Shown piece after piece: positions 2,851 through 31,092 of a stretch of 33,598 nt of DNA (position 1 is its first letter; every line of letters starts with the position of its first letter). Source of the stretch: a virus; the IMG/VR virus record IMGVR_UViG_3300045988_096981, positions 1 to 33,598 of that record, one strand, 5' to 3'. The translations under genes were made by a program, and so were the position numbers. A model generated the notes under the pieces. That model ran no database searches, had not been told where the DNA came from, and saw only the letters and a program-made list of their open reading frames with translations.

Positions 2851-3105
2851 TTATTCAACGGCTTCTTTCATCTGTCGCACCAAGTCTAGAATAATAGTCT
2901 TAGCCGCGGATAATCCAGCCGCGATTGCAGACAGTGCGGTAGCCATTGTCAGAGCATATAGCTCGTGCCAGCTCGCCGCGAATAGTAAGTTCACTAGATT
3001 TACGCCAGCTAGCAAAAATGTTGCGATAAACGTCTGTACGAACGTCCATCCAGCACGAATAGCCACGTCTTTATAGTCAATGTTCTTTAATGATTTTAGT
3101 TTCAT
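2851..3105 (-). CDS. Holin (r1t/LL-H-like, two transmembrane segments)
   Basis: 84 aa. The motif RAGWTFVQTFIATFLLAG plus a second hydrophobic helix are present, and the gene is adjacent to the endolysin. Confidence 0.7.
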   Translation of the reverse strand: MKLKSLKNIDYKDVAIRAGWTFVQTFIATFLLAGVNLVNLLFAASWHELYALTMATALSAIAAGLSAAKTIILDLVRQMKEAVE

Positions 3106-14042: not shown

Positions 14043-15827
14043 TTAAGCTTTCTTCAAACCGATTGCTGATTTCAAGCCAGACAAGCCACCACCGATATAA
14101 AGCTCTTGCAAGAACTCTTCCTCGTTGGTCTCAAGCTTAAAGTTAGTGAAGGCTTCTACAGAAGTATCACCAACAGTCTTGTACGCACCAAGCACGACAA
14201 CATATGCGTCGTAGTCTGGATCAGTTGCGTCAGTAAACCATGTTGGCTCAATGATAGTAGCTGTGTCTAATACGTCTTCAGCCTTTGCGCCAATCTGGAA
14301 CAAGTATTTACCGTCAGCACCCTTTTCAAAGCGTGCGCTTGTTGCAAAGCCTTTCTTAGCGATAAGAACAATCTCACCGTCAGTACGGATCATGTCCTTA
14401 GCTCGAGCTACAGCTTCAGCGCGGCTCATACCTGCTGTAATAGTCAACTCATCACCGAAGGTATTCTTTGCTTTTACGTCTGACTTAATAGAAGTAAATG
14501 ACGTAATCTTGCGCTTGTCGCTATCTTCACGACCGTCACCGATAACAGCAGCACGTTCAACTTCGCGAATAATTCGGGTAGGCAATTCGTTCAGAACGTA
14601 TTTCATCAATGCGCCTGTTGATTTGTTCTCACGGATAGTCTGCTTGTCGAGTACCAAGTACTTGTAAATCACGCCTGCGCGGATTGTACGGCTTTCAAAG
14701 TCAATAACTTGCTGGTCTTTCTTTTCGCCCTTCTTGTGTCCGCCTGCACGACTAGTGTCAGCTTCGACATCGGCTTTGTCCCAGGTAACCTTGAATACAT
14801 CTAGACCAGTCTTGTTCAATTTGCTGAAGATTTCACCTGATGTTACAGCGTCTTCAATAGCAGAAACGACAGGCTCTGGCAGTTTGAAAAACTCTTTGTC
14901 GGTCAAGTTATTCTTAACCAAAACATCTTGCCAAGCGCTCTTAACGTCATTAAAAGTACGACCAGCGTTTGCCATCAATACTTGTGTAAAATCTCGCACT
15001 GATGCTTGAGTTTTTAGATAGTCATTAACAGTAGGGGTTGTCGTAACCTCTGCTTGCTCTTTTGGCTCGATGATTTGAGCCTTTGCGATTTCCTCGTTCA
15101 TTTCGTTCTCCTCTTCTTTACCTGATTTATCTTCTACTGGCGGCTCAGGTGTGTCGTCAGCAGGTTCTTCGACCTTTTCGGTCTCTTCACTTTTCACTCG
15201 TGTAGCGATTGCCATAGCTGGTGCCAAGCATGCGTCTTTCACGATTGAGGTATAGCTAGCGGCAGCTTTCATAGCGTCAGACAAGCTTGTTTTCGCTTCT
15301 ACTGCTTCGGTTGCAAATCCAAGCTCCACAGCTTCAGCGGCAGTCATCCACGTCTCAGCAGCTAACAGTTCTTCTATCTTTTCTTCAGATAGTCCTGTTC
15401 GGCTTGCATAAACTGGAATCATACTCTCACAAGTCTTCTCTAACATCTCAACAGCTCGACCTAATTCGTCTGCATTTCCAGCTGCGATTGTCCACGGCTT
15501 GTGAACCATCATCATCGCGCCAGGTAGCATAACGATTTCGTCGCCAGCCATTGCTATGAGAGACGCTATAGACGCGGCTAGTCCATCGACCTTTACTACA
15601 ACACGTCCGTTATATTCACGGAGCATATTGTAAATCGATACACCAGCGAATACATCACCCCCAGGACTGTTAATCCTCACTGTAATGTCGCCTGTACGCG
15701 CAGCTAATTCCTCTTTGAAAAGTTTTGGCGTAACGTCGTCCTCGAGCCAACTCTCACTAGCAATAGTGCCATTGATAATTAACTCGTTTGAGGCTTCAGC
15801 TTTCGCCCACTTCCAGAATTTATCCAT
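14043..15827 (-). CDS. Fusion protein: ClpP/S14-type prohead protease, an acidic scaffold-like linker, and an HK97-fold major capsid protein
   Basis: The N-terminus carries INSPGGDVFAGVSIYN, VDGLAASIASLIAMAGD and MMVHKPW (ClpP-like Ser/His context). The middle is Glu/Pro-rich. The C-terminal ~330 aa sit in the capsid position and no separate capsid ORF exists. Confidence 0.8.
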   Translation of the reverse strand: MDKFWKWAKAEASNELIINGTIASESWLEDDVTPKLFKEELAARTGDITVRINSPGGDVFAGVSIYNMLREYNGRVVVKVDGLAASIASLIAMAGDEIVMLPGAMMMVHKPWTIAAGNADELGRAVEMLEKTCESMIPVYASRTGLSEEKIEELLAAETWMTAAEAVELGFATEAVEAKTSLSDAMKAAASYTSIVKDACLAPAMAIATRVKSEETEKVEEPADDTPEPPVEDKSGKEEENEMNEEIAKAQIIEPKEQAEVTTTPTVNDYLKTQASVRDFTQVLMANAGRTFNDVKSAWQDVLVKNNLTDKEFFKLPEPVVSAIEDAVTSGEIFSKLNKTGLDVFKVTWDKADVEADTSRAGGHKKGEKKDQQVIDFESRTIRAGVIYKYLVLDKQTIRENKSTGALMKYVLNELPTRIIREVERAAVIGDGREDSDKRKITSFTSIKSDVKAKNTFGDELTITAGMSRAEAVARAKDMIRTDGEIVLIAKKGFATSARFEKGADGKYLFQIGAKAEDVLDTATIIEPTWFTDATDPDYDAYVVVLGAYKTVGDTSVEAFTNFKLETNEEEFLQELYIGGGLSGLKSAIGLKKA

Positions 15828-19675: not shown

Positions 19676-20470
19676 CTACACAAGTCCCCATTCGGCGAAC
19701 TTCTCAAAACCACCAACACCTTCAATGTACTTTCTAGCAATTTCAACTATTTCAGAATAGGGTAGCCCATCAACCATCTCGTCGCCTATAGCACAACTAA
19801 TATTTACTACTTCGCCCGTCTGCTGAGCCTTCAGATATGCGTAAATGTTTACAGCCACATCTGCCTTGCTTAAATCCTTGCCATGCAAGCCACCACCAGT
19901 TACGGCTTCGCCCATATCGCTTCCGAGCTTTCTATTTGTAGCACCAGTATCAACATCTAGTCCTCCAGTCCAGTCTCCGAGAGGATTTATGACTAGGTTT
20001 GTATATTGTGCCTGTAGCCGTTCTCTCAAATCTGCTGATGAGGCATGCGACTGGCAGACTATCAACCGACCGTCGTCGAGAATATACTTGCCGTCAGTCG
20101 GATAATCATTAAATAACTTTTTAACAAGATCAGAGAGCTCTTTTACGACAGAGTTCGTTGGAATCCCCTTGAATATCCCATTATCGCCCGCACGCAACTT
20201 CTCATGTTGGTTACGCGCTAGTTCAGCATCCTGAGCTACACTAATAACCTCCACGGATGAAATCTCTGACAATCTGTATACAATGTCATGAATACTTTCG
20301 TTGCTGATGTTAACGTTCGACTCAATGACAATAAAAGCCTTTTTGTGACCAATTAGCACTTCAACTGCAATCTTCGGGTTCTCTGCCTTCTGATACGCCA
20401 AGTCGACTATTGCACCAGCTATTCTGTCTGCTACTTTGTCAGGGTGTGTAGGGTTTACTTTTTCGATCAT
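19676..20470 (-). CDS. metK: Minimal S-adenosylmethionine synthetase (methionine adenosyltransferase, 264 aa)
   Basis: Motifs align with E. coli MetK: THPDKVADRIAGAIVD vs GHPDKIADQISDAVLD; AGDNGIF vs AGDQGLMF; INPLGDW..GGLDVDTGATNRKL...TGGGLHGKDLSKADV vs INPTGRF..GGP.GDCGLTGRKI...GGGAFSGKDPSKVDR. Confidence 0.8.
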   Translation of the reverse strand: MIEKVNPTHPDKVADRIAGAIVDLAYQKAENPKIAVEVLIGHKKAFIVIESNVNISNESIHDIVYRLSEISSVEVISVAQDAELARNQHEKLRAGDNGIFKGIPTNSVVKELSDLVKKLFNDYPTDGKYILDDGRLIVCQSHASSADLRERLQAQYTNLVINPLGDWTGGLDVDTGATNRKLGSDMGEAVTGGGLHGKDLSKADVAVNIYAYLKAQQTGEVVNISCAIGDEMVDGLPYSEIVEIARKYIEGVGGFEKFAEWGLV

Positions 20471-25176: not shown

Positions 25177-25527
25177 TTATTTATCAAAACCCTCCTGCAA
25201 CATTTCTTTGAGGCAGGTCGAGCCGTTATAGAACTGCGTTATGAATTCATAGACACCATCTTGAACTTGAGTGATTTCAATAAAGTTGTCATACACGTCG
25301 AAATCTTTATCTAATTCAACTTTATAAATACAATTCCCGTCGATAACGATATAGCCGCTATCCTCTAATTCATACTCGTCAACTTCTTCTGCATCTCTAT
25401 AGTATTTATCACGTTCTTCTCTAGGTACACTTTGCCAGAACTTTTTCAAGTTAGCTTGAAGTTCATCAGCATCTTTATATTTTTTACAAAGTTTAAGTTT
25501 TCCTTTGAATCCTACAGTTTCACTCAT
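25177..25527 (-). CDS. Hypothetical acidic protein (116 aa)
   Basis: Open frame with an AAAGGA RBS. No family recognised. Confidence 0.65.
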   Translation of the reverse strand: MSETVGFKGKLKLCKKYKDADELQANLKKFWQSVPREERDKYYRDAEEVDEYELEDSGYIVIDGNCIYKVELDKDFDVYDNFIEITQVQDGVYEFITQFYNGSTCLKEMLQEGFDK

Positions 25528-25615
25528 TGTTATTTCCTTTATTTATACGAGGCACAATATTTAGTAATTCCACCTCTGTTATTTTATTCTCACTTATTTG
25601 TAGTTAGTAATTTCA

Positions 25616-25830
25616 ACCGTAGAACTGGGGCAAGGCGACACCAAAATGTATATCATTGATTAATTACTTTAAGGTTTGATGTTGCCAGTTGAACAGACGA
25701 CTCGGGTGGGCAAAATGGTCATCTGTCCAGTTGACAGCACAATCACGGAGCGAAGGATTTCTCACTTTTCGGCTTACTCCCGTTCGGGAACCCAGCTTTA
25801 TTCCTCAGATCATGCTGCCAGTTCTACGGT
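25616..25830. other. Candidate structured RNA or iteron-type DNA element, closed by a perfect 13-bp long-range inverted repeat
   Basis: ACCGTAGAACTGG (25616-25628) pairs with CCAGTTCTACGGT (25818-25830). CCAGTT boxes lie at 25685, 25727 and 25818. It sits inside a 340-nt ORF-free gap. Confidence 0.3.
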
Positions 25831-25867
25831 CGATGTTAATGTTCTACTGGGTACAAATTGTACCCGT

Positions 25868-26098
25868 TTATTTACGTTTGCTTATACGACCACCTTTTTT
25901 ACCTGCACACTTCTTTACAAAGTGAGGACCGTCGATTAGGTCGCAATCGCATTCAATATCTTGTGCAAATCCCTTACAAGTTCCGTGGCTTGCAAATGTA
26001 GCAGAGCCACCCTTTCGTCCGATTTCTGCGTAGAAGTTTGGGTTGCTCGCTAAGTTTTTCTGAGCGGCTTTCAGTCCGCCCTGCTTGGTTCCTGACAT
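25868..26098 (-). CDS. KGG-repeat (YciG/GsiB-like) stress-protein homologue with an inserted Cys cluster (76 aa)
   Basis: FYAEIGRKGG and AGKKGG match the KGG stress motif; CKGFAQDIECDCD...KKC is an added Cys cluster. Confidence 0.55.
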   Translation of the reverse strand: MSGTKQGGLKAAQKNLASNPNFYAEIGRKGGSATFASHGTCKGFAQDIECDCDLIDGPHFVKKCAGKKGGRISKRK

Positions 26099-30540: not shown

Positions 30541-30845
30541 TTATACTGCCCACTTTTCAGCGCAGGTGTGGGAGACCTGTAGTGAGCAGTAGCGGACGTT
30601 TGAAACACAGGAGTTTTACTTTTAATAAACCCAAAAATAAACACTCAAACGTCCAGCAAAGGAGCTGGCGATCGTCAAACCGCCCATTACTGCCCACTAA
30701 TTCCAAATTGTTAAGATACCAACTTCTACACGTGTTACGCCTGAACCTTCGAGCAATCTGTCACGCTTGTATAATTTTCGTCGTACGCTCTTTTATGGTG
30801 TCGCTTACGTAATCGTAATAGCACAGCTTGTTAATTCTGCACGAG

Positions 30846-30873
30846 ATTATCAGATACGCGTTTGATAACCTCG
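30846..30873. promoter_or_regulatory. Palindromic operator-like site, copy 2 (TTATCAGA-TACGCG-TTTGATAA plus CCTCG)
   Basis: 30848-30873 is the reverse complement of 631-656 with one mismatch. Confidence 0.6.
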
Positions 30874-30879
30874 TGGAAA

Positions 30880-30908
30880 TTAAAAAACCACAGCGATTTG
30901 CTGTGGTT
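30880..30908 (-). terminator. Rho-independent terminator directly after the tRNA-derived attP core
   Basis: Minus strand: AACCACAGC-AAATC-GCTGTGGTT followed by TTTTAATTT. Confidence 0.75.
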
Positions 30909-30921
30909 AAAACCCAAATTA

Positions 30922-30966
30922 TGGCGCCCCGAGTAGGATTCGAACCTACGACCTTAGGCTTAGAAG
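30922..30966 (-). other. attP core: the 3' portion of a tRNA-Arg(UCU) gene, from anticodon loop through T-arm to acceptor 3' strand and CCA, with no 5' half
   Basis: Minus strand reads CTTCTAA-GCCTA-AGGTC-GTAGG-TTCGAAT-CCTAC-TCGGGGC-G-CCA. The upstream sequence has no GCCCCGA acceptor strand or D-arm. The element lies 127 nt from the integrase stop. Confidence 0.75.
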
Positions 30967-31052
30967 TCCTCAGGTTGCCAATCAGATTATAACATAAACT
31001 TATCGCTTTAGTACAAATCAGAGGGTGTAAAAGTTCTATTGAATATGCTCTT

Positions 31053-31081
31053 ATATTAGCACACCCAAATTAAAAAGTCAA
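31053..31081 (-). promoter_or_regulatory. Second copy of the TTGACT-17 nt-TAATAT promoter, pointing into the attP core
   Basis: -35 at 31081-31076 and -10 at 31058-31053. It shares the 12-mer CTTATATTAGCA (31050-31061) with 661-672. Confidence 0.6.
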
Positions 31082-31092
31082 TAGGCTCATGC

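Follow-up and report, generated by a model that had tools for sequence, protein, structure and literature searches.

The gap at positions 25528-25867 of an uncultured phage genome is predicted to be a closed multi-hairpin RNA on the minus (coding) strand and not an origin. One of its modules (module A) is, judged by sequence and covariation, a member of a family of small RNAs (sRNAs) of about 86 nt which was not described before and which in bacteria and prophages accompanies the gene of the defence candidate PDC-S19, a HEPN-domain protein. We lean towards the reading that the sRNA restrains this HEPN toxin and that the orphan copy of the phage is an RNA anti-defence mimic, delivered from a modular array of RNA cassettes.

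The phage genome and the gap

The window, i.e. the whole stretch of 33,598 nt that was analysed, is an essentially complete genome (about 33.7 kb) of an uncultured siphovirus-like phage from human-associated metagenomes. It encodes a portal, a terminase, a ClpP-capsid fusion, NinG, a Dam-type methylase, a RecE-like exonuclease, a DnaB-like helicase and an integrase. The RNA array is located in the replication/recombination (nin-like) region. The phage has no close cultured relative. Its portal is only 28% identical to those of Bifidobacterium phages, and all contigs which carry such an array are metagenomic.

The gap, which the first-pass annotation of this DNA had described as ORF-free, separates two minus-strand ORFs, 25868-26098 (76 aa) and 25177-25527 (116 aa; PHROG 6035, function not known), and contains no minus-strand ORF of at least 45 aa. 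It is not the largest gap of the early region, as had been claimed there, since the ORF-free stretch 30707-31092 is longer (386 nt). The AT-rich left portion of the gap was borne out, and so was the perfect 13-bp inverted repeat (ACCGTAGAACTGG at 25616-25628 and CCAGTTCTACGGT at 25818-25830, with a spacing of 189 nt), which can be extended to 21 nt at 86% identity. The hairpin GGGTAC-AAATT-GTACCC was likewise found at 25849-25865. Three direct CCAGTT boxes are present at 25685-25690, 25727-25732 and 25818-25823, together with one inverted copy; two of the longer spans reported around them deviated by 1 nt and are corrected here to 25680-25698 and 25722-25740. For a GGAG...CTCC hairpin reported at 25747-25780 the letters are in place but the pairing is not, as covariation assigns them other partners (P1b/P2 and P3 of module A).

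A closed multi-hairpin RNA on the minus strand

Folding of both strands had been suggested as a check. The minus strand of the gap folds at -103.1 kcal/mol (z = -6.0; 0 of 100 shuffles as good) against -87.5 kcal/mol (z = -2.0) for the plus strand, and the array alone (25608-25838, minus) reaches z = -5.6 with 0 of 200 shuffles as good. The predicted architecture consists of a long-range stem of 16-21 bp around three stem-loop modules, each of which follows a (UC)AACUGG linker. A second suggested check, the comparison of homologous gaps, found the same architecture in dozens of related phage contigs, with compensatory changes present. The consensus fold of 14 close relatives contains the closing stem, there of 16 bp, as well as the stems of modules A, B and C, and shows many alternations between G.U and Watson-Crick pairs. 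In seven of 38 distinct arrays a G-C pair of the closing stem is replaced by U-A, while U.G is the majority state and mismatched combinations were never found (0). These compensatory changes and wobbles bear out the structured RNA of about 215 nt closed by the 13-bp stem which had been one of the two earlier proposals, and place it on the minus strand.

The minus strand was assigned because of the alternations between G.U and Watson-Crick pairs and the compensatory changes in the relatives. An RNA on the plus strand is ruled out by its z-score and by the G.U pairs, which turn into C.A if read there. The earlier opinion that the G:U evidence is contradictory and the strand unassignable does not hold for the homologues, whose G:U pairs consistently favour the minus strand.

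A scan with Rfam, also proposed before, gave no family match for the gap. At the gathering score Rfam 15 found no family in the whole window, and at E <= 10 the region 25400-26000 yielded only a chance snoRNA match in the neighbouring ORF. None of the curated ribozyme and riboswitch models of Rfam matches. ARAGORN and the Rfam model RF00005 detected no tRNA in the window, and a tmRNA was not detected either. A resemblance of the window copy of module A to a hammerhead (CUGAGGA...GAAA, compared with CUGANGA...GAAA) was dropped because it is missing in homologues such as that of Corynebacterium phage Poushou. No promoter-like site was found on the minus strand between 24500 and 27000.

In the order of the RNA, the gap contains the following parts:

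25849-25865, minus: leader hairpin GGGUAC-AAUUU-GUACCC, 3 nt past the stop codon of the upstream gene 25868-26098
25818-25838, minus: 5' arm of the closing stem, core ACCGUAGAACUGG (25830 to 25818), containing the first AACUGG box (25818-25823)
25734-25816, minus: module A, predicted orphan copy of the PDC-S19-associated sRNA (model R1, 73.4 bits; bacterial and phage covariation)
25808-25817 with 25735-25746, minus: scaffold stem P1 of module A
25747-25804, minus: three-way-junction core of module A
25803-25804 with 25747-25748, minus: P1b of module A
25791-25797 with 25749-25755, minus: P2 of module A
25786-25789 with 25778-25781, minus: P3 of module A, with GAAC loop
around 25764-25773, minus: P4 of module A, a short hairpin
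25727-25732, minus: second AACUGG linker (UCAACUGG), from A to B
25693-25726, minus: module B, hairpin ACAGAUGAC...GUCGUCUGU with loop AUUUUGCCCACCCG; alternation UG:7/UA:7 in relatives
25685-25690, minus: third AACUGG linker (UCAACUGG), from B to C
25636-25684, minus: module C, AU-rich hairpin with the stem CAACAUCAA / UUGGUGUCG; a stem pair G-C is replaced by A-U in relatives
25608-25628, minus: 3' arm of the closing stem, core CCAGUUCUACGGU (25628 to 25616)
25528-25607, minus: AU-rich leader of the downstream gene 25177-25527 with its ribosome-binding site (AAAGGAAAUAACA-AUG)

The leader hairpin is kept as gggtacaaaTTgtaccc and variants and lies 5' of the 5' arm of the closing stem in most relatives. 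The U.G pair of module B would be a C x A combination on the plus strand. The AU-rich leader is outside the conserved RNA and only a few relatives have it (L041, L062 and L076); in most others the ribosome-binding site follows directly after the closing stem. The CCAGTT boxes are predicted to be linkers between RNA modules, not iterons.

Module A belongs to a family of small RNAs

A stretch of about 56 nt (25746-25801) was found by blastn to be shared with Poushou, a Listeria phage and a gut phage contig, i.e. with unannotated DNA of unrelated sources, and a 23-mer of this core matches 103 viral contigs of IMG/VR. Among these contigs are 45 stand-alone copies with a convergent PDC-S19 gene as well as a second class, in which a window-like core lies between AACUGG boxes without PDC-S19 nearby. 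In two further phage groups (L004 with its relatives, and L082) the core abuts tRNA genes on the same strand.

The fold derived for the family has two variable elements, the outer stem P1 and the hairpin P4, besides the stems P2 and P3 and an internal loop that holds a GG:CC pair. P2 pairs AGCUGGG with CCUUUGCU, and P3 is UCCC-GAAY-GGGA. The variants CCCUUGCU, CCCAUGCU and CCCAAGCU convert G.U into Watson-Crick pairs, which is possible only on the minus strand of the window. A covariance model (R1) was built from the family alignment and the derived structure. Its single hit in the window (25734-25816, minus) is full-length with 73.4 bits and an E-value of 1e-20; cognate bacterial copies score between 66 and 96 bits.

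In an independent bacterial alignment 98.3% of the cells pair, a value that has to be read with the fitting of the alignment to R1, which favours its structure. In this model-fitted alignment double changes occur in 15 of 24 pairs compared with 3-6 for slid controls, and among the doubly changed pairs P2 shows AU 41 and GC 26 times, P3 UA 56 and CG 9 times. Both arms of P1 covary in the bacterial set. An alternative fold of module A given by RNAalifold (GGA/UCC plus UAAAG/CUUUG) is contradicted by the same P2 counts, the A or G before GCUGGG covarying perfectly with the U or C of GC(U/C)CC. When the phage copies are taken alone, again in an alignment fitted to the model, pairing is complete (100%) in P2 and P3, and P3 shows the compensatory variants UCUC/GAGA and UUCC/GGAA; the orphan RNA is therefore under structural selection in phages. 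Taken together with the R1 hit, this makes module A a member of the sRNA family.

The window copy possesses all invariant junction nucleotides (GCUGGGU / GGGAGUA / AGAA / UCC / GC.CC). It deviates at two positions which are at least 97% conserved in bacteria, with the loop GAAC in place of GAAU and UUCGC in place of UUUGC. P1 and part of the 5' internal loop (bacterial ACUYGUGAAGG ... UGGGGU) are replaced, and the U-run terminator is missing together with P1; a scaffold stem stands in the position of P1 and is followed by a linker. The changed P1 and internal loop and the two deviations at conserved positions count against the reading of this copy as an anti-defence mimic.

Partnership with PDC-S19 in bacteria and prophages

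In Poushou and in the Listeria phage the core is located just after a hypothetical gene for a protein of about 340 aa. This partner contains the Pfam domains DUF3644 and EC042_2821 and corresponds to PDC-S19 of PADLOC (E 1e-155). PDC-S19 proteins have 330-350 aa and a REase-like C-terminal domain, and those of the two phages share the RNxxTH (Rx4H) motif without change. DUF3644 is a HEPN RNase domain (PMC3710099), and defence by the DUF3644 protein HEC-08 depends on the HEPN histidine (bioRxiv 10.1101/2024.01.29.577857). A PDB sequence search with PDC-S19 found no relative. A literature search with incomplete coverage returned no paper on PDC-S19 or on an RNA partner of DUF3644/EC042_2821 proteins.

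The loci for the analysis of this partnership were picked by homology of the PDC-S19 protein alone, which makes the selection blind to the RNA. The sRNA is present in 76 of 80 bacterial loci (36-76% protein identity). They span Actinobacteria, Firmicutes, Spirochaetes and Melainabacteria, with Corynebacterium, Coriobacteriia, Bifidobacterium, Lachnospiraceae, Lactobacillaceae, Erysipelotrichaceae and Treponema among the groups represented. A replicate with PDC-S19 loci of viral contigs gave the same result (76 of 80). All eight loci without the RNA end at a contig edge, either about 10-140 nt from the protein match or within the gene; every evaluable locus, bacterial or prophage, has the sRNA (152 of 152). 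No copy was found in E. coli genomes.

Each locus carrying the sRNA has one copy, on the opposite strand immediately after the PDC-S19 gene and thus convergent with it, and the end of the RNA overlaps the stop codon of the gene, most often by 2 nt. A sigma-70 promoter with at least 10 of 12 positions ends 5-8 nt before the start of the model in 38 of the 76 bacterial loci, and a U-run of at least five follows P1 in 43 of them. By these signals the bacterial sRNA is predicted to be a discrete gene with its own promoter and terminator. Gene and RNA seem to be inherited as one unit, given the covariation between the arms of P1 and the overlap of the 3' arm with the stop codon.

The coupling is one-sided. 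While the sRNA without a PDC-S19 gene is common, the gene without the sRNA was never seen among the 152 evaluable loci. Such lone RNAs are located in the arrays, within tRNA arrays or next to genes for Bro-N, a repressor or an isomerase, and some of them keep a remnant of the last codons of PDC-S19. A divergent HEPN partner was not found beside orphan copies, whose neighbours encode Bro-N, an amine-oxidase N domain, mannose-6-phosphate isomerase or HTH repressors. In the window itself, tblastn over essentially the whole genome detected no PDC-S19 homologue.

Arrays and their cargo in related phages

The 38 distinct arrays with module A are 174-632 nt long, and a further 27 were ascertained via module B. 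They contain about two to six modules, and the number, identity and order of the modules are all variable; the smallest array consists of B and C only (129 nt). Module B, known from 75 array-bearing viral contigs, is found only in arrays and is part of a constant chassis. Of the arrays found through it, 36 of 75 contain module A. Cargo E, too, occurs only inside arrays, and a single contig with two arrays was seen. The number of CCAGTT/AACUGG boxes tracks the number of modules, and the boxes flank hairpins and tRNAs alike, two bona fide tRNAs being among the modules of the L093 array.

The other cargos are many RNAs of 60-250 nt without an Rfam match. Apart from the tRNAs of L093, Rfam searches of the relatives returned nothing (12 at the gathering score, five at E <= 1). 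In blastn searches the other cargos had no match to GenBank phages, and no link of the other modules to any defence system was found. It is possible, and we say so with reserve, that a large group of human-associated phages possesses in the array a hypervariable platform, with structured RNAs exchanged on scaffold hairpins; our proposal joins this with a new PDC-S19/sRNA pair.

Comparison with known systems

The nearest parallel to the bacterial pair is AbiF, a HEPN toxin which is bound and neutralised by the ncRNA AbiFr/RCd22 (PMC12373285, PMC12737573). Both systems combine a HEPN RNase with a dedicated, structured, cis-encoded ncRNA, often on prophages. However, the HEPN part of PDC-S19 is DUF3644/EC042_2821 with a REase-like C-terminal domain, whereas AbiF belongs to Abi_2; the RNA of the window lacks the abiF motif (no Rfam hit at E <= 10); and PDC-S19 has one three-way-junction sRNA convergent at the 3' end of the gene in contrast to the upstream repeats of AbiF. 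Neutralisation was demonstrated for AbiF, while for PDC-S19 it is suggested by this analogy.

For the phage copy, the closest case is the pseudo-ToxI of phage PhiTE, an antitoxin-like RNA without a toxin by which the phage escapes from an abortive-infection system (PMC3475682). Likewise, the phage of the window possesses the RNA that accompanies PDC-S19 but not the PDC-S19 gene. Whereas ToxI consists of 36-nt units repeated in tandem and is processed by ToxN, the RNA of the window is one structured unit on a scaffold hairpin in a multi-module array. Tandem repeats upstream of the toxin and on its strand, the hallmark of type III toxin-antitoxin systems, are not present here, and the unit is not repeated in the window. 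Moreover, pseudo-ToxI arose in a laboratory escape mutant, whereas copies of the window type are fixed in many natural phages, for which we infer escape.

RNA anti-CRISPRs or Racrs are small phage RNAs that imitate the RNA part of a defence system and subvert the protein of that system (PMC10651486), and viral sgRNA mimics are likewise phage copies of defence RNA (bioRxiv 10.64898/2026.06.03.729762, 10.64898/2026.06.01.729453). The putative target of module A differs from theirs in being a single HEPN-REase protein and not CRISPR-Cas, and the RNA is neither a repeat nor a guide.

Phage tRNA arrays resemble the present array as tandem structured small RNAs on one strand, the more so as tRNAs are among the modules of relatives and adjoin the core in two further groups of phages. 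In contrast to them, the array of the window has no tRNA, and it possesses fixed AACUGG linkers, related scaffold stems and one enclosing long-range stem.

The type I toxin-antitoxin pairs txpA/RatA and bsrG/SR4 consist of a small membrane peptide as toxin and a convergent antisense RNA which overlaps the 3' end of its gene. The bacterial sRNA is also convergent and overlaps the 3' end of a protein gene. Its partner, however, is a nuclease of 330-350 aa, its covarying fold is not required by plain antisense pairing, and the phage copy lacks the overlapping tail.

A putative anti-defence RNA and its alternatives

According to the reading that we prefer, the sRNA would be the inhibitory partner of PDC-S19, i.e. 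an RNA antitoxin that binds the protein through the conserved junction core and possibly acts also as antisense RNA on the 3' end of the toxin mRNA. Loss of the labile sRNA in infection would set PDC-S19 off. By transcribing its own copy early from the replication/recombination region, the phage would keep PDC-S19 silent. The closing stem probably allows a double-strand-specific RNase to excise the array from the polycistronic mRNA, and the repeated linkers and scaffold stems would make the modules exchangeable, which could account for the different module sets, tRNAs included, in related phages. An inhibitory role is favoured because orphan RNAs are common and no orphan gene was encountered, as one would expect for an antitoxin. 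Of the bacterial sRNA, the phage copy retains the junction core alone and has lost the toxin-overlapping tail; any activity should therefore come from its fold, which points to protein binding.

If this is true, the "single-gene" defence candidate PDC-S19 becomes a protein-RNA system and a second, unrelated HEPN-RNA pair beside AbiF/Cas13, and natural, fixed phage RNA mimics extend RNA counter-defence beyond ToxI and CRISPR repeats. The analysis also defines a new and widespread family of structured RNAs whose core is unusually conserved. The modular array suggests that phages gather and swap small RNAs as integrons do gene cassettes. As a tentative wider proposal, PDC-S19 may be a HEPN-nuclease/sRNA pair of toxin-antitoxin type rather than a single-gene system, and the array an integron-like, RNA-only counter-defence island whose cargos mimic RNA components or substrates of other systems. 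The extension of the mimic role to the other cassettes is speculation; were it correct, the unexplained cargos would be a list of candidate anti-defence RNAs.

The alternative that survives best, although we regard it as unlikely, is a processing or regulatory hub in cis, in which an RNase III/RNase E site or a stability element tunes the flanking early genes and module A is just a sturdy captured fold. The array lies in a polycistronic unit between the 76-aa and the 116-aa ORF of the same strand, with a ribosome-binding site directly downstream; its long closing stem is similar to excision stems, and the chassis modules B and C persist where A is absent. Such a hub and the mimic do not exclude each other. 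A hub in cis offers no account of a defence-linked junction core retained with compensatory changes in phages, of the same core within unrelated phage tRNA arrays, or of the hypervariable module content.

To a second alternative we give a low probability. The sRNA might be a positive cofactor, a guide or a sensor of PDC-S19, and the phage copies might misdirect or titrate the nuclease or serve an unrelated phage function. Cas13 is an example of a HEPN effector with RNA guides (PMC12737573), and both the strict coupling of gene and RNA and the very strong sequence conservation would suit such a role. But a variable single-stranded segment like that of a guide is missing, the variable parts of the RNA being paired stems, and supplying an activator brings the phage no gain. 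The frequency of orphan RNAs and the absence of orphan genes are also better explained by an antitoxin.

It is improbable that the RNA is a recombination or integration target in the manner of a tRNA-gene attachment site, or that the modules are selfish mobile cassettes without benefit for the phage. Modules are shuffled among relatives, and integrases adjoin the RNA in Poushou and in a Fructilactobacillus plasmid and lie beyond it in 4 of 71 bacterial flanks. The integrase of the window, however, is 5.3 kb away from the array, and compensatory change maintains the structure within the phages. The covarying arms of P1 and the overlap of the 3' arm with the PDC-S19 stop codon indicate that the complete RNA is passed on with the gene; together with the low count of integrases they disfavour a prophage attachment site in a host gene as the explanation of the adjacency to PDC-S19. 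Some temperate elements with orphan copies may use this conserved RNA gene as an attachment site.

The second of the earlier proposals, a DNA element in the form of CCAGTT iterons with an AT-rich replication origin or of a landing pad for a regulatory protein, is very improbable in spite of three direct boxes and one inverted box beside an AT-rich stretch. The pairing is strand-specific, with G.U pairs on the minus strand only; the boxes flank hairpins and tRNAs and follow the modules in number; most relatives lack the AT-rich part; and the cumulative GC skew has no inflection.

That the gap encodes a conserved small protein, which the first-pass annotation had named as something that would overturn its proposals, has a probability close to nil, since the short ORFs on both strands (e.g. 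25676-25939, plus, 87 aa, TTG start; 25664-25765, minus, 33 aa, GTG start) are not kept in 79 distinct homologous sequences, where every frame of both strands closes in the core (minimum open stretch 7-22 codons), and module order and content differ between relatives.

Apart from these alternatives, the core of the sRNA is near-invariant across phyla, from Actinobacteria to Melainabacteria, although the protein diverges to 36% identity, which simple co-evolving binding does not predict. The RNA may also mimic a conserved cellular RNA.

Conservation of the sRNA and its neighbourhood

The junction core of the sRNA, the RNA family of about 86 nt of which module A of the minus-strand array is an orphan copy, is near-invariant from Actinobacteria to Melainabacteria among the bacterial copies chosen by homology of the partner protein (alignment A3), whereas PDC-S19, the HEPN (DUF3644)-REase defence candidate encoded convergently with it, is merely 36-76% identical over the same range. 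None of the explanations tested accounts for the degree of this conservation. Before the orphan sRNA copies of three loci, L003 (~2940-3000), L019 and L095, the last PDC-S19 codons (...CAKKK*) survive as a remnant, which suggests that the nuclease gene was lost there and the RNA kept.

Tyrosine integrase genes are located within ~100-250 nt of the sRNA gene, on its 5' side, in several loci:

L001 (Corynebacterium phage Poushou), 3176-4387: integrase gene near the sRNA gene
L257, 1740-2891: integrase gene near the sRNA gene
L161, L163, L171 and L137: further loci of this kind

The highly conserved sRNA gene may also serve as an integration target, like tRNA genes.

Cargo of related arrays

Arrays with AACUGG linkers can carry other modules, and some larger contigs of the phage's group (about 72-74 kb) contain two separate arrays:

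L093, 3413-4016: two tRNA modules in an array relative (ARAGORN)
L049, sites about 6056 and 9012: two arrays
L247: two arrays

One of the tRNA modules is a tRNA-Tyr (GTA). In the second the anticodon loop is irregular, and ARAGORN labelled it 'tRNA-???'. A further module, 'D' (for example in the arrays of L017, L023 and L032), is closed by CUAUAUAAG...CUUAUAUAG and was called neither by ARAGORN nor by Rfam. Its 5' start, GUGGCGGAAUAGGUAGACGC, looks by eye like the D-arm of tRNA-Leu and is followed by 100-250 nt of highly diverse cargo; the 3' part ...CUCGGCAAAUCAUCACC is common to the 'D' modules.

Other features of the window

14043-15827: one 594-aa ORF, ClpP-type prohead protease fused to a major-capsid domain
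19676-20470: 264-aa product with an S-adenosylmethionine synthetase N-terminal domain
25868-26098: 76-aa ORF rich in Gly/Lys
30707-31092: 386 nt, no minus-strand ORF of at least 45 aa
31093-32004: integrase gene

The fusion matches head maturation protease and major head protein in PHROG, and CLP_protease and L_lactis_ph-MCP in Pfam. The 76-aa ORF has no PHROG match; many relatives have its C-terminus, ...GKKGGRISKRK, directly upstream of their arrays too. The ORF-free stretch directly upstream of the integrase gene, which is longer than the array-encoding gap (25528-25867), may be attP or a regulatory region. The 264-aa product (Pfam S-AdoMet_synt_N, from the annotation of an identical contig) adjoins the terminase genes, which is odd for a small phage.
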